From Gammaproteobacteria bacterium (GTDB lineage Bacteria; Pseudomonadota; Gammaproteobacteria; UBA4575): a stretch of DNA of 64,000 nt. The notes under the pieces were generated by a model, which was given only the letters and a program-made list of their open reading frames with translations, did no database searches and was not told where the DNA came from. Location of the stretch: NCBI GenBank assembly GCA_965222615.1, contig CBDCUI010000009.1, positions 448,001 to 512,000 on the forward strand. The letters run 5' to 3'. This document shows, one piece after another, positions 1-25,665 of this stretch. Positions within the stretch are counted from its first letter, which is position 1. Each line of letters begins with the position of its first letter. The translations under genes were made by a program, and so were the position numbers.

Positions 1-837
1 GTTAGTTTCAGTCGGATCGTATGTAGATACATTATTTGGACCAAGCTTATTAGCTTGTTGTAAAGCCTTTTCGGTAATATCCACTAGATCAAATCCAGTC
101 TTTACGCTGTCTAATACTGAAGATACTCCAGCACTAACCGTAATCTGTAGAGCAGTAGTATTTTCTTGGTCATGTTGTGGCAAGACATCTAATTTAGCAA
201 TTTCAGAACGTAAACGATCTGCAAGCACTTTAGCCATTTCCTCATCTGTCTGAGTTGTCCCCACAACTATTTTATGCTCATCAAATCTTGCAACAATATC
301 TGAAGAACGAACTGTATTAACGACATAGTCGCTCACTTTTCTTAACACAACCTCTGCAACCAACTTACCATGATTATCTTTAACACTACTATAATCATCT
401 ATATCAAATAATATTAATGACAAAGGTAGCTTGTAACGACGCGATCGTTGTGTTTCCTCGTCAATTCTGCGATCAAAATAACGACGATTATAGATATCCA
501 AAATTGGATCTATAATGCTAGCTTGATCCATCGCGATTGCTTCACGGATATCACGAGTCGTTTGGTAGGTAAGGAAACATAGCAGCAATACAAATGCTGC
601 AACTGCAAGACTAACAGCAGGAAATGTGATACTGGCCAATTCTACTTTTCCAGTCCACATCATGACTTGATAGACTGATAGCCCTACAATAAATCCAACT
701 ATAAAAAACGAAAGTATCTGCCAGTTATTCCTAACTTTTCCTAGTGGAAGTTTTTTAATTAAGTGCTGTATTGTAAACAACGAAGCAGCAAAGCAACTGA
801 TGCCACATAAAATTAAAATATTTGCTAATAAAAACAT
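1..837 (-). CDS. Membrane-anchored GGDEF-domain protein with degenerate active site (truncated by window start)
   Basis: Not in the ORF track; translated by hand from the ATG at 837 (GGAG RBS). Hydrophobic N-terminus, then IDPILDIYNRRYF...LSLIIFDIDDY...RSSDIVARFDEHKIVV. Confidence 0.85.
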   Translation of the reverse strand, partial: MFLLANILILCGISCFAASLFTIQHLIKKLPLGKVRNNWQILSFFIVGFIVGLSVYQVMMWTGKVELASITFPAVSLAVAAFVLLLCFLTYQTTRDIREAIAMDQASIIDPILDIYNRRYFDRRIDEETQRSRRYKLPLSLILFDIDDYSSVKDNHGKLVAEVVLRKVSDYVVNTVRSSDIVARFDEHKIVVGTTQTDEEMAKVLADRLRSEIAKLDVLPQHDQENTTALQITVSAGVSSVLDSVKTGFDLVDITEKALQQANKLGPNNVSTYDPTETN

Positions 838-884
838 GAATTGCTCCAATACTTGTCCTTAGTCAGGGAACCAAAACTAGTCAG

Positions 885-2138
885 CTACGGGGCGATCTCG
901 CTAATTAGGACATCTACCGTTTCAGACTGGTGAGTTGTAACCGGATGTATACTCCCAAATATGTCACCACTTTGCATAATTGCCTGGCCTGACTTAGAAA
1001 TTCTTGCTATTACTTCTACCTGATCCATGCTGGATAGGGTCATCGCTGGCATCATTGAAACAGAATCGTCTAGGGTAACTGTAGTGGGCACGTCTCCAGC
1101 GGTCATTTTCACTAGTGCTAAAGGCATTTTTGGACCGTTTATCGCCCGCGCATAAACAAAAAGTGTGTCGGATTTCAACACCTTACCCTTAAGCTCTTCA
1201 GCGAGCGAAACATTGACCGTAATGCTGGCTGTAGAATCAACCTCCTGCTGAGATTCAATCGGTTGACCAGCTTGAGGGGCAGAGCTGATTTCTATACCGG
1301 CTTTTTGTTTGGCATCATTCAAATAGACCAATAATGCAGATTTAACATCTTCCTGATCGGCTGGAACCAGCTGTAACAGCCTCTCCCAGTAGTTAACGGA
1401 ATTTTTATAATCCTGTAATTGAAATGCCGCAAAGCCCGCATACCACAGGGCTCGTTCATGTTTCGGGTCTATTTGTAGCGCCTTCTTAAATAGCTCTGAT
1501 GACGACTCATTAAACTTTTGTCCGGCAGCAAAACCTTGCGCTTCACCATATGAAACCAGTACGTTTGGATTTGAACCATTGGTTAATTCATTTGCTTTTG
1601 CATAAGCCTTTACTGCAGCATCGAAATTTTCCAATATAAGATAAGACCTTGCCAACATTAACCAACCATCAAGATTATCTGGATCTCTTTGTAACTTTTT
1701 TTCAAGACTTGCAATCGCATCTTCTACAGAAGACATTTTATTCTGTTGTTGGGCTTTTAATTGCTGTTCAAATTCTGGAGACAGTGATTGCAGACCACTA
1801 TTAATTTTCAAATAAACAAGCACAGCAACAATTGGCAGAATGAATATAATTGCAATCGGTAGGATTCTATTGCCCTTGCTGACTATAGGTTGTTTTTGGT
1901 CTTCAAGATCATCAATCAAAGTACGTTGCAGATCTGTCTTCGCGACTTGAAATTGTTCTTGATCAATTAGATCTTGTTCTAGATCCCGCTCCAGCTCTGT
2001 CAGTTTCTTTTCAAAAACTGCTCTATTGATTTTTTTTCTATCAATATCTGCCTGTGGTTCCCTAGCAAACAAGGATGGCAAAATAATGACTAATGCCACT
2101 ATTAACAATAATGCACAAATCAACCAAAAACTAATCAT
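885..2138 (-). CDS. ccmI: Cytochrome c biogenesis TPR protein CcmI/CycH
   Basis: N-terminal TM helices, TPRs (DGWLMLARSY), C-terminal 'ARISKSG' domain; last gene of the ccm operon. Start chosen at MISFW (2138). Confidence 0.9.
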   Translation of the reverse strand: MISFWLICALLLIVALVIILPSLFAREPQADIDRKKINRAVFEKKLTELERDLEQDLIDQEQFQVAKTDLQRTLIDDLEDQKQPIVSKGNRILPIAIIFILPIVAVLVYLKINSGLQSLSPEFEQQLKAQQQNKMSSVEDAIASLEKKLQRDPDNLDGWLMLARSYLILENFDAAVKAYAKANELTNGSNPNVLVSYGEAQGFAAGQKFNESSSELFKKALQIDPKHERALWYAGFAAFQLQDYKNSVNYWERLLQLVPADQEDVKSALLVYLNDAKQKAGIEISSAPQAGQPIESQQEVDSTASITVNVSLAEELKGKVLKSDTLFVYARAINGPKMPLALVKMTAGDVPTTVTLDDSVSMMPAMTLSSMDQVEVIARISKSGQAIMQSGDIFGSIHPVTTHQSETVDVLISEIAP

Positions 2139-2604
2139 CAGAATTGCTATCCTGATTAAGTGCAGATTCAAACTTTGCTTGTTCCTCAGAAGTTAACTGA
2201 GTATGTGGTTGCACTTTTTGTTTTTTTATCATCAAAATGAGGAAACCTAGTACACACACTAGAATTATGAATGGGCCAAACCATAGTAAATACGTTTTTG
2301 GCTTAACCAAAGGCTTATACAATACAAAATCACCATAACGATTCGCCATAAAATCAATAATATCTCTATCCGTTGCACCTGCTTCCAGCATTTTTTTTAC
2401 TTCTGCACGTAAGTCTTTAGCTAAATCTGCATCAGATTCTGCAATCGTTTGATTCTGGCAAACTAAACAACGCAACTCATTTAATAAGGCGTGGTAACGC
2501 TCCTCATGCTTTGGCGAAATAGTCGCAGGTTCTGCAGCTATACAAACAGCAAAAAAACAAAGTAGACAGGCTAATAAAATATTGTAGTAATTATGAAGTT
2601 TCAT
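2131..2604 (-). CDS. ccmH: Cytochrome c biogenesis protein CcmH
   Basis: LRCLVCQNQTIAES motif and RYGDFVLYKP; likely start MKLHN at 2604. Confidence 0.95.
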   Translation of the reverse strand: MKLHNYYNILLACLLCFFAVCIAAEPATISPKHEERYHALLNELRCLVCQNQTIAESDADLAKDLRAEVKKMLEAGATDRDIIDFMANRYGDFVLYKPLVKPKTYLLWFGPFIILVCVLGFLILMIKKQKVQPHTQLTSEEQAKFESALNQDSNSDD

Positions 2605-15567: not shown

Positions 15568-16617
15568 CTAAATTGTGAGTTCACCATATGGTGAATCTTG
15601 ATATGATTCAACTTGTGCTACAGCATACTTCCATTCATTTGTATCACGCAAAATCTGATAAGAAGGTGGATCTTTGCCTCCATGCATTCGAGTTAAACGA
15701 ATTTGTGATGCTGGATTGTTATAGTTTTCTAGTCTCTCTGCAACTTCACAAGACTGATCACTAGCATTACAAATTAACACCATATCGCAACCTGCACGTA
15801 AAGCTTTTTCAGCACGTTGTAAATATTCAGAATCACATTCAGCTGCTTTCATACTAAGATCATCACTGAAAATGACACCTTTAAAATCTAACTGTTGGCG
15901 CAAAACAATATCCAACCATTTTTTTGAATAAGTCGCTACTTCACTATCTACTTTTTCGTAAACGACATGGGCACTCATAATTCCTGCCAGGCCATGATCA
16001 ATCATGCGTTGAAACGGCACCAAATCGTCCATCAAAATATCTTGGAAATCACGACTATCGGTAGGTAAATCGATGTGTGAATCTGCAATCACTGCACCAT
16101 GGCCAGGAAAATGTTTACCTACTGCCTGCATACCTGCTTTTCGCATTCCATGTATATAACGTAATGCCAGTGTAGATACGACATCGGGATCTTTATGAAA
16201 GGCACGATCTCCAATGACCTTACTCACTCCATGATCGAGATCGAGTATTGGTGCAAAACTGAAATCAACACCAATTGACCGCAATTCAGCTGCCATCAAC
16301 CAGCCAGTTACTTCCGCTAATTCACATGCCCGTGAGGCATCCGCCTCATATTCCTTGCCCAACAAACTAAGCGCTGGCAATTGTGTAAAGCCATCACGCA
16401 AACGTTGTACTCGCCCGCCTTCTTGGTCGATGGCCACCAGCAGTCTCGGATGACGGATTGCGTGAATCTCATCAATAAGATCTATTAGATTTTCAACTGA
16501 AGTAAAATTACGACTAAATAGGATGACGCCTCCTACCTGAGGTGATTCCAAAAGCTTGCGTTCTCGTGCAGAAATGCTATCTGCACAAAGATCTACCATG
16601 AGTGGACCAAGTGACAT
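15568..16617 (-). CDS. nagZ: Beta-N-acetylhexosaminidase (GH3)
   Basis: DQEGGRVQR, KHFPGHG..ADSH, SDDLSM. Confidence 0.97.
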   Translation of the reverse strand: MSLGPLMVDLCADSISARERKLLESPQVGGVILFSRNFTSVENLIDLIDEIHAIRHPRLLVAIDQEGGRVQRLRDGFTQLPALSLLGKEYEADASRACELAEVTGWLMAAELRSIGVDFSFAPILDLDHGVSKVIGDRAFHKDPDVVSTLALRYIHGMRKAGMQAVGKHFPGHGAVIADSHIDLPTDSRDFQDILMDDLVPFQRMIDHGLAGIMSAHVVYEKVDSEVATYSKKWLDIVLRQQLDFKGVIFSDDLSMKAAECDSEYLQRAEKALRAGCDMVLICNASDQSCEVAERLENYNNPASQIRLTRMHGGKDPPSYQILRDTNEWKYAVAQVESYQDSPYGELTI

Positions 16618-16707
16618 TGAGTGAATTATTCGCTAAACCGCGCTGAAATTGAAGTTAGGTTTCTCCACTTGATTAAGAAAGTGGGTCATTCCAACAGATT
16701 ACCTAGA

Positions 16708-16740
16708 CAAAAAAAGGCCGCCAATCTAGGCGGCCGAATC
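16708..16740 (-). terminator. Intrinsic terminator with the same stem as the sRNA-like repeat
   Basis: On the minus strand GATTC-GGCCGCC-N6-GGCGGCC-T7. Confidence 0.75.
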
Positions 16741-16803
16741 TAAAACAGGCTGCTTATGAGATCAATCAAGCCTCATTATGTAGCTTACTAAACCAAAATA
16801 TTA

Positions 16804-19376: not shown

Positions 19377-20240
19377 TTAACTGCTTGCATGTTGTCGTTC
19401 AAATTGTACAGGTGTTAAGTAATTCAAGTAACTGTGTCTACGCTGTCGATTGTAAAAAATCTCTATATATTCAAAGATACTGCGTTTAGCTTGTTCGCGT
19501 GTTTTATACTGACAATGATGAGTCAGCTCTGTCTTTAGTGTATGAAAGAAACTCTCCATCGCTGCATTATCTAAACAATTGCCTTTACGGCTCATACTAC
19601 AAGTCATGCGATGGTCTTTCAGTAGTTGATGATATTCAGAGGTGCGATATTCCATGCCTTGATCCGAGTGAATCAGTAAGTCTCGTTTGCGTGAGCGTTG
19701 ACTTAAAGCCATCCTAAGCGCATCCAACGTTAAGTGTTTATTACGTTTGTCTGACATCGACCAACCAATGATTTTTCTAGAAAATAAATCCATAATCACT
19801 GCGACATATAACCAACCGGCCCGAGTGGGCACATAGGTGTAATCGGATACCCAGCGTTGATTCGTGTGTTGCGCAGAGAAGTCACGTTGCAATTGATTGG
19901 TTTCTATATGTTCAAACGTCTTACCTCGCTTGCTTCGCTCCCATAAACATTTCATGCGCGTCTTTAACCCGGCTTGCTTCATCAAGCGTGCCACACGATG
20001 TTTGCCACATGGAACACCTGAGGCGTTCAGCTCAGCATGAATTCTAGGATAACCGTATGTCTGTCTTGAAGATTGATGAATATCGATAATCAGCTTCAGC
20101 AATTGTCGATTGGCTTTAGTACGCGCACTCATCGGCCGATCTCGCCATGCATAGTAACCACTCTCAGAGACTTGCAGTGCACGACATATCCAAGCAATTG
20201 GATAATCATGGCGATGCTGATGAACCCACTCAAACTTCAT
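19377..20240 (-). CDS. IS3 transposase OrfB (DDE/rve)
   Basis: WVSDYTY, HSDQG, SRKGNCLDNAAMESFF. Confidence 0.97.
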   Translation of the reverse strand: MKFEWVHQHRHDYPIAWICRALQVSESGYYAWRDRPMSARTKANRQLLKLIIDIHQSSRQTYGYPRIHAELNASGVPCGKHRVARLMKQAGLKTRMKCLWERSKRGKTFEHIETNQLQRDFSAQHTNQRWVSDYTYVPTRAGWLYVAVIMDLFSRKIIGWSMSDKRNKHLTLDALRMALSQRSRKRDLLIHSDQGMEYRTSEYHQLLKDHRMTCSMSRKGNCLDNAAMESFFHTLKTELTHHCQYKTREQAKRSIFEYIEIFYNRQRRHSYLNYLTPVQFERQHASS

Positions 20241-20533
20241 TCCGATAGCTTGGTGAAGTGGTGGGTCGCTTTTTTTAAAATCTCATTCTCTGCACGCAAA
20301 CGTTCGTTCTCTTTACGCAGTTTCGTTAATTGCGCAGCTTCACCACTTTGTTGACCTTTACCAGGAAAGGAATCTTCGCCTTTAATGGCCAATTGCTCTT
20401 TCCATTTGTATATTTGATTGACGCGAATACCAAGTTCACGCGCCACTTGAGTGACTGATTGGTCACTTTCTTCCGCTAATCGAATCGCTTCTAACTTAAA
20501 TTCTTTTGTGTATTGACGATATTGTCGTGGCAT
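20237..20533 (-). CDS. IS3 transposase OrfA (HTH); -1 frameshift fusion with OrfB
   Basis: YTKEFKLEAI..ILKKA; A7G slippery site at about 20269-20276; ATGA overlap with orfB. Confidence 0.95.
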   Translation of the reverse strand: MPRQYRQYTKEFKLEAIRLAEESDQSVTQVARELGIRVNQIYKWKEQLAIKGEDSFPGKGQQSGEAAQLTKLRKENERLRAENEILKKATHHFTKLSE

Positions 20534-20751
20534 TGAGTTCTCCTTATCAGGGTAGTTTAACCCCTTTCAAGAACTCCATTAAACCGGGGGAAGATCAAAC
20601 ACTATTGATTAGTCCAGCTACAATATCGTTTGCACCAAGATCAACCGTATGCAAATCAAATAAGTTGATTGTTTGCGATTGCTAGTTAGAAGTGAAGCTC
20701 AAGGTGATTTTTGCCTGATTCATGTCTATTGGCGGGCTAATAGACATCAAG

Positions 20752-20825
20752 CAAAAAAAAGGCCGCCAAAATGAGGCGGCCGAATCCAGGAGGAGTCGAG
20801 AATAACAACATGTCAAATAGAGGAT
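20752..20825 (-). repeat. Displaced 3' copy of the candidate sRNA (att-like direct repeat)
   Basis: Identical to 24091-24163 except in the terminator loop. Confidence 0.9.
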
Positions 20826-20995
20826 TATTCGCACCACGTTTTTAGGTTAATTTATGTACACCTGATTGTAATGAAATCAACAATTTAGTTACCTAGGTTT
20901 ACCTCTATTTACCCCTATTATTGCGACTGTTTGCGGCACGACTGCGGCAATTTTGAATTGAGCGGTAAACAAATTTACATTAAATTGTATGCAAA

Positions 20996-23166: not shown

Positions 23167-23571
23167 TTATTTACATGTGGTTGTATTACCAATAGTGGTA
23201 CACGTAACAGATTGTGGCGGTGCATAAATAGAATTCCAGAGTGCAGTTTTTTGTAATTGTGCTACTTCCCTTGAGCTCTGCATATTTTTAAGCTCAACAT
23301 ACAATTGTGACATGAGTAAACGTGCTTCTTGTTCAGTACGCGTACCAGCGCTGACTTGAGTGGCCAAATAGTCTGCCGTATTTAAATAAAGTTCAACCAA
23401 GTCTCTTTGATTTCCTTTGCTACGTGGATCAGCACTTGATTTCTCTCTCCAGCATTTAACCTCAGCTTCAAATGAATTGTGTAATTCTGCACATTGATCT
23501 TGATAATCAAGCATAGTCCCACATCCTGCTATACACATTACAGTAAGTATTGTTAAAAATTTGTAACTCAT
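23167..23571 (-). CDS. Putative lipoprotein
   Basis: Signal peptide with lipobox IAGC; GGAGG RBS before MSYKF. Confidence 0.7.
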   Translation of the reverse strand: MSYKFLTILTVMCIAGCGTMLDYQDQCAELHNSFEAEVKCWREKSSADPRSKGNQRDLVELYLNTADYLATQVSAGTRTEQEARLLMSQLYVELKNMQSSREVAQLQKTALWNSIYAPPQSVTCTTIGNTTTCK

Positions 23572-23603
23572 ACTTGCCTCCTTCGTCTCAAACATGTAAG
23601 TGT

Positions 23604-23967
23604 TTACATTTCTTTAACCAACTCAATCCAATCATCATTTGCTGGTTGCATCATATAATCAATCTCATCTCGATCATCTGACTCAAACCAATTATTGAAT
23701 TCTTCTTTATCTAAAATTACCGGCATTCGATGATGTATTTTTGACATCTTTTTATTTGGTGCTGTAGTTAAGATGCTCATAAGCATTTCCCCATCTGCGT
23801 TTATTTCGTAGAGTCCCCCAAAAGCAAAGCCGTCATCAAAAGCAGGACCAATTCTGTACCTATCTCGCTTACCCTTTGGTCGGTTTTCATCCCACTCAAA
23901 GAAAGCACTTGCTGGCACAATACACCTTCGTTCACGTAAAGCTTTTGACCAAGCTCTCTTTTCTCAC
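23604..23967 (-). pseudogene. 5'-truncated SOS response-associated peptidase (SRAP/YedK)
   Basis: RRCIVPASAFFEW and IHHRMPVIL present; in-frame TGA just upstream; N-terminal catalytic MCGR is missing. Confidence 0.85.
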
Positions 23968-24090
23968 GCATCGCTTCCCATGCTTTAAATAATCGCTATA
24001 AGCATTGTTTTAGCGAAACTTAAACTGGTTAAAAACTAACCTCGAATATTTTGAAATTTAGAAGGTAGTTAAATTGGCGCTATTAAAAGC

Positions 24091-24187
24091 CAAAAAAAAG
24101 GCCGCCAACACAGGCGGCCGAATCCAGGAGGAGTCGAGAATAACAACATGTCAAATAGAGGATATTTGTATCATGTTGAGAGGCTCA
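24091..24187 (-). ncRNA. Candidate sigma54-dependent small RNA (~95 nt)
   Basis: -24/-12 promoter upstream, 5' hairpin with AUCCUCU loop, single-stranded CUCCUCCU, GC-rich terminator plus U8. Confidence 0.6.
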
Positions 24188-24197
24188 CTCTATTTAA

Positions 24198-24214
24198 AGC
24201 ACATTTAATGCCAA
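24198..24214 (-). promoter_or_regulatory. Sigma54 (-24/-12) promoter
   Basis: Minus strand TTGGCATTAAATGTGCT has GG-N10-GC spacing; near-IHF site at about 24233-24245; GACAATTT at 24272, 24291 and 24312. Confidence 0.6.
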
Positions 24215-24564
24215 ATAAACAAAATTAAAGGAATTCAACAACTTAATTGATTTTATCAGCTACTGTGCATAGACAATTTAGATAAATTTCGACAATTTTT
24301 GGCACATTTGTGACAATTTGTTGTAGTTAAGTTATCCAAATAGCTTAATTCACTAGAGTTTTTCCTAATTTCAGTTTTAATACCTAGAAAAGAATTGATC
24401 AAAAATTGATCGATATAAGGCATTTTCTTTGTCTGCACCGCAAACTGGCACCATTTCTATTTATACTGGTTCATTGACCTCAAGCTTCTACCTTGCGTAC
24501 ATGACCTACCAGAGACGAGAGTCATCATGTTCGAAAAATTAGAAACTATAAAAATAAACTAATA

Positions 24565-25665
24565 ATGATCGAATCTGTATACCAATCACTTATAGACAGC
24601 AAGAACCTGGTAGAAGACCCTAATCAACGAAAAGTCATTCAAGCATTACAAACACTGCATGATGAACTAAGCACTGATAATCCCGATGACTCCACCATAA
24701 TTGATCGCTTTACGACATTCCTATCGCGAAAATCTAATACCCGAAGTGTTAAAGGACTTTATATCTGGGGAGGCGTGGGACGAGGAAAAACATTTTTGAT
24801 GGATATGTTTTTCTCTAACTTACATTTCCAGGACAAACTTCGCCTGCATTTTCATCGTTTTATGGATCAAGCACATCAAATGCTAAAAAATTATCATGAT
24901 GAGCCAGATCCACTAAAACTTGTAGCTAAAGAGTTTTCTGACAAAGCAAAAGTGTTATGTTTTGACGAATTTTTTGTAAACGACATTGGTGACGCCATGA
25001 TTTTGGCAGGCCTGCTTGATGGTTTATTTGAAAACAATGTAGCGTTAATCGCGACTTCTAATGTTGAGCCTGAATTACTTTATAAAGATGGCTTACAACG
25101 TGAACGATTTTTACCAACGATTAAATTATTACAAGAGCACACGAATGTTATTCATCTAGATGGTGAAATTGATCACCGTTTTGAGTTTTTACAAACCAAT
25201 GATGTGTATAACTCACCCATTGACGACTCTTCACACAACTGGCTCGTACATAATTATTTGAATCTTGCAAATGAACGAGTTGAATCCTCTTGGGAGAAAA
25301 TAAAAATTAATGATCGAGAAATACAAACTTTGCAGCACACAGATACCGTAGCCTGGTTCGACTTTAAGGAAATTTGTGATGGTCCACGCTCTGTGGCTGA
25401 CTATATTGCCATAGCCAAACAATTCAATACCGTTTTAATTTCACATGTGCCTATATTTGATGGAAAAGACGACCAGGCTAGAAGATTTATTAATATGGTG
25501 GATGAGCTCTATGACCGAAATGTAAAACTCATTTTGTCAGCCGAAGCTTCTCCAGATAAACTATATACTGGCTCACGCTTAAAAGATGAATTTGCTCGAA
25601 CTACGAGCCGATTGACAGAAATGCAATCGCATGAATATTTAGAAAAACAACATCGGCCAAATTAA
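24565..25665 (+). CDS. zapE: Cell division ATPase ZapE (AFG1 family)
   Basis: GGVGRGKT, HFHRFM, CFDEF, ARRFINMVDELYD, RTTSRLTEMQS. Confidence 0.95.
   Translation: MIESVYQSLIDSKNLVEDPNQRKVIQALQTLHDELSTDNPDDSTIIDRFTTFLSRKSNTRSVKGLYIWGGVGRGKTFLMDMFFSNLHFQDKLRLHFHRFMDQAHQMLKNYHDEPDPLKLVAKEFSDKAKVLCFDEFFVNDIGDAMILAGLLDGLFENNVALIATSNVEPELLYKDGLQRERFLPTIKLLQEHTNVIHLDGEIDHRFEFLQTNDVYNSPIDDSSHNWLVHNYLNLANERVESSWEKIKINDREIQTLQHTDTVAWFDFKEICDGPRSVADYIAIAKQFNTVLISHVPIFDGKDDQARRFINMVDELYDRNVKLILSAEASPDKLYTGSRLKDEFARTTSRLTEMQSHEYLEKQHRPN

Follow-up and report, generated by a model that had tools for sequence, protein, structure and literature searches.

What does the spacer upstream of zapE encode in a little-studied gammaproteobacterium, and what would switch it on? 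The spacer lies in a 64,000-nt stretch of Gammaproteobacteria bacterium contig CBDCUI010000009.1 (positions 448,001 to 512,000; hereafter the window). From the letters of the window, the original prediction had proposed an unannotated small RNA (sRNA) on the minus strand, preceded by three short repeats, a site resembling that of integration host factor (IHF) and a sigma-54 promoter with exact GG-N10-GC spacing. The RNA was described as about 95 nt free of open reading frames (ORFs), with a hairpin, two anti-Shine-Dalgarno (anti-SD) motifs and a terminator with U8, and as assignable to no family. Judged from comparative sequence evidence, the locus represents a conserved, previously undescribed sRNA family of a known kind in little-studied marine-type gammaproteobacteria. 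We put at roughly 70% the probability that its product is an enhancer-dependent, sigma-54-transcribed, trans-acting sRNA of the Hfq type which blocks ribosome-binding sites, with PilR or a FleR/FleQ-type regulator as the most likely activator. The architectural claims of the original prediction are backed by conservation in relatives.

A conserved unit in the zapE spacer

When the window is read on the minus strand, all the proposed elements are found in place. Three AAATTGTC repeats start at 24319, 24298 and 24279 (span 24319-24272); in the plus-strand form, GACAATTT, they start at 24272, 24291 and 24312, with spacing of 19 and 21 bp. The IHF-like site TAAGTTGTTGAAT (24233..24245; complement form YAANNNNTTGATW, one mismatch to the IHF consensus) ends 19 nt upstream of the TGGC of the sigma-54 promoter TTGGCATTAAATGTGCT (24198..24214), which has GG at 24212-11 (-24/-25) and GC at 24200-199 (-12/-13). 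Compared with the sigma-54 consensus TGGCAC-N5-TTGCW, the segment TGGCATTAAATGTGCT at 24213-24198 shows the expected GG/GC spacing. The predicted RNA of ~94 nt (24093..24186) would start at 24187/24186 and end in the U-tract at 24099-24092; it reads GAGCCUCUCAACAUGAUACAAAUAUCCUCUAUUUGACAUGUUGUUAUUCUCGACUCCUCCUGGAUUCGGCCGCCUGUGUUGGCGGCC followed by U8. The only listed ORF overlapping it is antisense to it (44 aa, plus strand, 24074-24208). Divergent from the RNA are zapE (24565-25665, plus strand) and, after it, a malate dehydrogenase gene.

Taken from the single sequence alone, the case is moderate and mixed. The promoter pattern TGGCAYN5KTGCW has one match in the window, and GACAATTT occurs nine times where 5.4 occurrences are expected, while no other run of three exists among the 834 AAWTTGYC sites of the 3.1-Mb genome. 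Chance does not explain the unit, because it is conserved in relatives. A BLAST search with 246 nt found it in 12 of the 24 genomes searched from its own family, and in none of 16 further families in the class. A covariance model built from 17 copies of the window's subtype (type A, see below) matched the window at 24084-24186 with 125.4 bits and detected the RNA in 35 of 56 family genomes. These include every sampled genome of genera g1, g2, g6, g7, g9 and g11 and 14 of 16 from g8; the model found none in the sampled genomes of g3 (0/13), g4, g5 and g10. Searching contigs from one genome per species with the core pattern gave 28 stretches, 27 of which belong to uncultured Gammaproteobacteria, Thiotrichales or Pseudomonadota metagenome-assembled genomes (MAGs); the 28th, inside a coding region of a Limivicinus MAG, was discarded as a chance match. 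After dropping identical cores, the set comprised 28 copies of the sigma-54 type and five siblings. Loci are given below as L numbers and genomes as G numbers.

The unit also keeps its position. In all 28 sigma-54-type loci zapE is situated upstream in divergent orientation, and in 23 of them nagZ and then mscS follow downstream; the other five are the window itself, two loci ending early, G001 and G014. The 24-nt core GUUGUUAUUCUCGACUCCUCCUGG stays near-invariant down to a ZapE identity of 46%. Likewise, GUUGUUAUUCUCGACUCCUCCUG is invariant or nearly so in distant genera with ZapE identity of 46-49%, and the same is true of GTTGTTATTCTCGACTCCTCCTG across 27 aligned copies. The core is invariant at all three codon positions. 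In the window it corresponds to UUAUUCUCGACUCCUCCUGGAUUC (24120..24143), which holds the anti-SD motif CUCCUCC (24133-24127) and is the proposed seed.

Conservation extends upstream of the RNA. The promoter elements TGGC[AG]Y-N6-TGC (TGGC-N8-TGC) are kept in 28 of 28 copies, in each of which conservation of the RNA sets in 11-14 nt (mostly 13) past the -12 C, as expected for the start. In 17 of the 28, a match to the strict IHF-like pattern YAA-N4-WTGAWW ends exactly 19 nt before TGGC, and the remaining copies carry a CTGAA variant, TAAGTnnCTGAA, at the same place. The first two of the repeats fall into one 30-bp block, AAATTGTCACAAATGTGCCAAAAATTGTCG (24290..24319), near-invariant in 18 type-A copies whose flanks diverge. 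This block is composed of two 15-bp dyads, TGNCN-N5-NGNCA, with centres 21 bp apart, ~105-135 nt upstream of the predicted start. The third repeat (24272..24279) is kept or nearly kept in few relatives only, and its function is therefore doubtful; of the upstream enhancer originally read from three repeats, only the two-dyad part is conserved. With predicted activator sites in the range of about -100 to -150 that is usual for enhancer-dependent promoters, an intervening IHF-like site and a fixed distance to the promoter, the sigma-54 architecture is well supported by comparison, and from it we infer binding of the corresponding factors.

Structure and proposed action of the RNA

The computed fold matches the one drawn in the original prediction. 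Hairpin 1 (24144..24178) has the outer stem CAACAUG/CAUGUUG, the inner stem CAAAUA/UAUUUG and the loop UCCUC (24162-24158), and it precedes ACUCCUCCU. The RNA is closed by a Rho-independent terminator (24092..24119), GGCCGCC-UGUGUU-GGCGGCC with U8, the sole one found by a terminator scan in 23500-24700. The fold has -36.8 kcal/mol (z = -5.47), and none of 200 shuffles is equally stable. In partition-function folds the core is mostly unpaired, or its UCCU is shown in a weak hairpin loop; UUAUUCU and UCCU of CUCCUCCUGG are unpaired, and the 5' GAG pairs with CUC.

Two subtypes can be distinguished by hairpin 1. Type A, to which the window belongs, has the inner stem and loop given above. Type B, present in g8 and g11, has the inner stem CAAUCA/UGAUUG with an A/U loop, and therefore is without the first anti-SD motif. 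Thus, of the two anti-SD motifs proposed originally, CUCCUCC in the core holds, while UCCUC in the loop is not a general feature. A third inner stem, AAUUAAA/UUUAAUU, still pairing, occurs in L038.

The predicted stems are shown by covariation, so that the check on the zapE upstream region of relatives suggested in the original prediction comes out positive. In the MAFFT alignment of type-A copies, which is not model-fitted, 99.1% of cells are paired and three pairs changed on both sides. When 33 distinct rows are aligned to the model, 95.3% of cells pair, compared with 30-56% after sliding of the partner columns, and pair changes on both sides number 11, against 4.7 +/- 1.1 in shuffles (0 of 500 reach 11). 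By helix, pairing is 92.9% in helix 1 (three pairs changed on both sides), 93.5% in helix 2 (four pairs) and 99.1% in the terminator helix (four of seven pairs). Covariation of the terminator is visible by eye in the MAFFT rows as well: its arms occur as GGCCGCC, GGGCGCC, GGCCGUC and GGGCACUC, with everything upstream fixed.

The RNA falls outside described families, as had been anticipated. Among the 4227 models of Rfam 15, including Qrr, GlmY, GlmZ, RyhB and mmgR, none matched the window at gathering score. Sixteen matches are below threshold, the best four (20.8-28 bits vs cut-offs of 37-55) being driven by the terminator and CUCCUCC. The best is RF02278, Betaproteobacteria_toxic_sRNA, with 28 bits where 50 are needed for membership (E 0.0012, 24093-24136). 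The likeness consists of CUCCUCC followed by GGAUUC, a GC-rich terminator with a U-tail, sibling copies close together and the anti-SD logic. However, the RF02278 model has a 17-nt hairpin between CC and GG where the window RNA has a single base, and there are further differences in the 5' hairpin, the type of promoter and the host lineage. NgncR_162/163, sibling sRNAs of Neisseria, are placed with the same kind.

The promoter region recalls other systems. Vibrio Qrr sRNAs depend on LuxO and sigma-54, and they share with the present unit a sigma-54 promoter with upstream activator dyads, a short sRNA of the Hfq type and multiple siblings; but their conserved core differs, no Qrr match at E <= 10 was obtained over 23950-24450, and the LuxO-type box TTGCA-N3-TGCAA is not in the window enhancer. 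Enterobacterial GlmY/GlmZ involve GlrR, IHF and sigma-54, and present the same promoter order, with several activator sites, an IHF site, a sigma-54 promoter and a small RNA. The differences are that no Rfam match to them, no TGTC-N10-GACA sites and no relation to glmS were seen here. The predicted RNA is thus like GlmY/GlmZ or Qrr in promoter layout and like the toxic sRNA (tsRNA)/NgncR kind in its seed, and it is a member of none.

A hairpin, an accessible CU-rich stretch and a U-tailed terminator are the usual layout of base-pairing sRNAs of the Hfq type. The corresponding features are present here: a Rho-independent terminator with U-tail, a predicted accessible seed and an hfq gene in the genome. 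Given this layout, which suits a base-pairing sRNA whose seed is CU-rich, occlusion of the SD and start codon is taken as the most likely action. In the mechanism that we propose, the zapE-nagZ spacer would hold an independent gene for a ~94-nt trans-acting RNA, transcribed by sigma-54 RNA polymerase at TTGGCAT-N5-GTGCT. An enhancer-binding ATPase would sit on the two phased dyads ~120 nt upstream, with an IHF-type bend in between. The RNA would fold into the 5' hairpin, the largely accessible invariant stretch UUAUUCUCGACUCCUCCUGG and the strong terminator with its U-tail. Together with Hfq, the CU-rich stretch would pair with GGAG-type SD and start regions of several mRNAs and block initiation of translation; in the window's subtype, the second UCCUC, in the hairpin loop, may add to the pairing.

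Candidate targets were sought by start-codon-anchored RNAduplex and by a Smith-Waterman-type pairing score over 16,687 candidate starts. Among the best true-start candidates in the RNA's own genome are cynS, urtA and gltA, together with the genes for an ABC substrate-binding protein and for the small subunit of the hydrogenase. The best of them, cynS, would form a 10+6 bp duplex, GAGGAGUCGA plus GAAUAA, across SD and AUG, and the pairing site in urtA is CCAGGAGGA. Pairing at the start regions of pilA, zapE, nagZ and mdh is at background in the own-genome scan. The top non-self match of a whole-genome 8-mer-seeded RNAduplex scan is antisense inside a purC-like ORF and was rejected. Two adjacent minus-strand genes at G000:C7:109409 and 109915, a 166-aa ORF that looks Tpx-like by its N-terminus alone and a 126-aa ORF, each match the U-rich part of the sRNA at the start codon with 11 nt of perfect complementarity; by a rough estimate, ~1.6 such matches are expected genome-wide. 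As a separate observation, in genus g3, which is without the sRNA, a conserved sigma-54-like promoter, TTGGCYCG-N5-TGCT, precedes cynS (L089-L107).

Several results count against this interpretation. The cynS site is not kept in nine other sRNA-bearing genomes, compared with 16 lacking the sRNA, and CAGGAGG of urtA is the same in five sRNA-bearing and four sRNA-lacking genomes, so that neither candidate provides the conserved target expected of an sRNA of the Hfq type. Accessibility of the seed is a thermodynamic prediction. The 33-row alignment was fitted to the model and leans towards it, and many helix-1 pairs never vary within type A. The promoter pattern occurs at least once in 27 of 100 shuffles, which makes its match in the window, taken alone, weak. 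As to expression, no RNA run containing the sequence was found among sequencing runs. One contig labelled metatranscriptomic WGA covers 24113-24190 and then enters a relative's promoter sequence; since it continues into promoter DNA, it may be DNA and cannot count for expression.

The failure of cynS and urtA in these comparisons is also what could be expected if the RNA were functional without pairing to mRNAs, for instance as a decoy for a protein or another RNA, with CCUCC incidental or a mimic of the 16S 3' end. The 24-nt invariant stretch exceeds most seeds, and the 5' GAGCCUC, which has no assigned role, is invariant too. We nevertheless hold a decoy to be unlikely, as there is little in the way of CsrA/RsmA-type GGA motifs (one in type A, none in the type-B core) and the layout is, as a generalisation, the one usual for base-pairing sRNAs of the Hfq type.

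The gene order downstream could be read in another way, with the promoter driving the nagZ-mscS operon and the terminator acting as a regulated stop, riboswitch-like or protein-mediated, in a cis-acting leader. It is true that nagZ has the same orientation and begins ~50-170 nt downstream in the 23 loci mentioned. But the two arms of the terminator covary without any matching change in the RNA upstream, which is invariant, and therefore no conserved antiterminator pairing is possible; the stem itself has seven GC pairs followed by U8. Furthermore, RNA, promoter and enhancer are intact in the window despite 7.4 kb of DNA before nagZ, and in G014 and G002 siblings and cargo genes separate the RNA from nagZ. 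Attenuation of nagZ-mscS is accordingly quite unlikely.

Promoter class and candidate activator

A promoter scan lists TTGGCA-N16-TAGAGT (9 of 12 matches) in this AT-rich region, which would make the promoter one of the sigma-70 type and leave the upstream block to serve zapE or an unrelated factor. We consider this very unlikely. Relatives show no conservation of the supposed -10, whereas TGC, which on this reading would be part of the spacer, is the same in all 28 copies; the scan gave two sites where 4.2 are expected by chance, and the IHF-like site with distant dyads fits enhancer-dependent promoters. For sigma-54-dependent transcription, the genome has one rpoN gene (237 bits), found also in 24 of 24 family genomes sampled, and six strong genes for bacterial enhancer-binding proteins (bEBPs; Sigma54_activat). 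The latter are NtrC (above the NCBIfam cut-off), a PilR-like protein beside pilS/pilA, a FleQ-like and a FleR-like protein in the flagellar cluster, a hydrogenase-adjacent one and an NtrX-like one.

Two types of enhancer precede the same RNA. Type-A copies share AAATTGTCACAAATGTGCCMAAAATTGTCG, and type-B copies share TTGGCAATAATTGCCG-N4-CGGCAA-N5-TTGCCACA; both can be read as phased half-sites TGNCN, ~10.5 bp apart. According to a genome scan, the exact dyad TTGNCAC-N4-GTGNCAA is present only here, with no second site. For comparison, pilA enhancers in eight genomes of both subtypes are TGACA-N5-TGTCA, a perfect dyad found three times in the genome, twice upstream of pilin sigma-54 promoters. 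The flgB enhancers in six genomes are TGCCG-N5-CGGCA followed by TTGCC, and the glnA enhancer has two GCAC-N7-GTGC boxes. Dyads of the sRNA have the geometry of pilA and flgB enhancers with half-sites mixed. Type-A sites, TGATA-N5-TGTCA (g7) or TACAA-N5-TGTCA (window) and then TGCC[AC]-N5-TGTCG, are nearest to the pilA kind, with 1-3 mismatches from its dyad (as in TGATA-N5-TGTCA of g7 and TGCCA-N5-TGTCG of the window genome). Type-B sites, TGGCA-N5-TGCCG and CGGCA-N6-TGCCA, are nearer to the flgB kind.

The distribution of regulators points in the same direction. Of the 56 genomes, 27 have a PilR orthologue and 22 have FliG, and the sRNA is present in every one of these, an association confounded by kinship; in g8, PilR and FliG are found in one and the same set of seven genomes. 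G014, without FliG, has only NtrC, PilR and an NtrX-like protein as bEBPs, and its type-A enhancer is intact, with TGTCA as the middle half-site. In three readable type-B genomes without PilR or FliG (L013, L038, L015; loci assigned to genomes by matching coordinates), the enhancer is altered partly or wholly. NtrC, a candidate because no other bEBP is shared, was rejected since its boxes are missing, none of the GCAC-N7-GTGC kind being conserved in the 28 sRNA upstream regions. The hydrogenase-linked bEBP b5 and a regulator designated bX were ruled out by distribution. The activator is most likely a regulator of surface appendages, and not NtrC: PilR in the lineage of the window and a flagellar FleR/FleQ-type protein in the other lineage. 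This is the weakest step of our reading, resting as it does on enhancer resemblance and co-occurrence.

Other observations speak for caution on the activator. Eight sRNA-bearing genomes have no PilR orthologue at E <= 1e-110, and G006 has only a PilR(1-227)-PilC fusion ORF. G015, 100% complete by markers, has NtrC as its sole bEBP, and yet promoter and most of the enhancer are kept; NtrC is moreover the only bEBP common to all nine sRNA-bearing genomes with bEBPs listed. In the window genome the best PilR-type dyad of the enhancer has two mismatches, and 1171 such sites occur genome-wide.

Some features of appendage and sigma-54 loci were recorded along the way. The fusion ORF of G006 (L071, G006:C1:900331-903618; ORF 385-2187, minus strand) encodes 600 aa, in which the PilR receiver and half of the AAA+ domain are joined to a T2SSF protein of the PilC type; the remainder of pilR, along with pilA and neighbouring genes, was apparently lost in a deletion. 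The pilA sigma-54 promoters (L023, L063, L072-L077) read TGGCAY-N5-CTG(T/A)A, without GC at -12, and type-A genomes have a conserved hairpin, GGAGUCGUUAAAGACUC, in the pilA 5' leader. At G000:C7:569400-569790, divergent from glnA, a hydrophobic ORF of 42 aa with a strong SD is under the control of a second sigma-54 promoter, TGGCATAGCCCTTGCT, which has the pilA-like dyads TGCCG-AAATT-TGTCA and GGACA-AAATT-GGTCC upstream; this unit may be a regulon partner of the sRNA. Another sigma-54 promoter, TGGCATAACATTTGCT, at G000:C8:179646 (plus strand), has NtrC-like boxes upstream and no ORF of at least 60 aa within 300 nt downstream, and could mark another sRNA or a long leader.

The sigma-54-dependent sRNAs known so far are few (Qrr, GlmY/GlmZ, CrcZ, NrsZ, Pxr and some in flagellar cascades), and each revealed a regulatory circuit. 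The present unit has an unusually complete and conserved promoter architecture in a poorly studied family. Because two enhancer types drive the same RNA, it would offer a ready-made model of enhancer turnover. The core, frozen across genera, points to several important targets, and these would show what the bacteria couple to the activator's signal. If PilR is the activator, this would be the first PilR-dependent sRNA; judging by titles and abstract openings, no paper retrieved in the literature searches deals with such an RNA. An RpoN-dependent sRNA is reported to belong to the motility cascade of Campylobacter jejuni (PMC11187230). The likeness to it would exist only if PilR or a flagellar bEBP is the activator, that is, as output of an appendage cascade; organism and sequence are unrelated, and the motility link in the present case consists of the enhancer resemblance and co-occurrence described above.

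Sibling copies and the insertion site

The window contains further copies of the sRNA or of its parts. A sibling on the minus strand (20745..20849; terminator 20781-20761) has the same hairpin architecture, with compensated changes, and an identical seed; it shows 82% identity over the 3' 132 nt by BLAST and 96 bits with the covariance model. A remnant on the same strand (16700..16774; 27.5 bits) retains GAUUCGG and the terminator only, and is located between a hemerythrin-like ORF and nagZ (15568-16617), a short way upstream of the latter. Other siblings were found in G014 (two), G002 and a MAG (one each). In the siblings, the IHF-like site and a related block of dyads are retained, but GG and GC of the -24/-12 elements have been lost, thus illustrating sRNA evolution through loss of the sigma-54 promoter. 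For the window sibling, a promoter scan found no sigma-70 promoter, and gave no support to a hand-read one, TTGATT-N18-CATAAA.

The 7.4 kb that separate the window RNA from nagZ are unrelated DNA, bounded by part-copies of the sRNA 3' end. Between the copies lie an SRAP fragment, five ORFs without family, an IS3 element, cytochrome P460, TetR and a hemerythrin-like gene. The zapE/sRNA-nagZ spacer may be an insertion hot spot that uses the 3' module of the sRNA.

Such an arrangement could suggest that the unit is no gene at all, only a repeat of mobile DNA produced by duplication of an attachment site at an insertion hot spot. Each of the three copies or part-copies in the window ends a block of accessory genes, the IS3 element is nearby, and a candidate defence pair resides between copies in G014. 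Against this, most of the genomes that have no insertions carry just one full unit, always at the same place in the chromosome; its promoter and enhancer are conserved and its stems covary; and there is no integrase between the copies, for which reason an integrase-borne island was discarded too. A mere repeat is thus highly unlikely. The part-copies may mark insertion events, which is compatible with the sRNA being a gene. That the RNA instead encodes a small peptide from one of its two AUGs (MIQISSI from the hairpin, or MLLFSTPPGF... from CAUGUUG) is hardly credible, since neither AUG is preceded by an SD, the first is missing in type B and the second in L015, L033 and L048, the second frame crosses the terminator with its variable sequence, and the core is without third-position variation.

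Taken together with the sRNA reading, a wider picture can be drawn, which we offer as tentative and regard as having clearly less than an even chance of being right. The RNA would be the riboregulatory arm of a surface-appendage programme, switched on by PilR in the window lineage and by a FleR/FleQ-type protein in the sister lineage, and during the production of pili or flagella it would stop a set of mRNAs from being translated. Its enhancer would have been rewired between paralogous activators with the core frozen, and its 3' module would serve as a landmark of recombination or insertion for accessory and defence cassettes, spawning promoter-swapped siblings.

As for the inserted genes, PADLOC reported no defence genes among the five unknown ORFs of the window. 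In the spacer of G014 (L016, G014:C1:984730-987806) it identified the candidate defence pair, PDC-M50A/B, with a ThsB-like TIR domain. The IS3-family element (19377-20533, minus strand; two ORFs, HTH_Tnp_1 and rve) is inserted just downstream of the window sibling. Downstream of the RNA, at 23604-23971 on the minus strand, only a C-terminal fragment of an SRAP (YedK-like) gene is left, covering profile positions 102-204 of 214 and overlapped by a short ORF; it probably represents a pseudogene where the inserted block ends.

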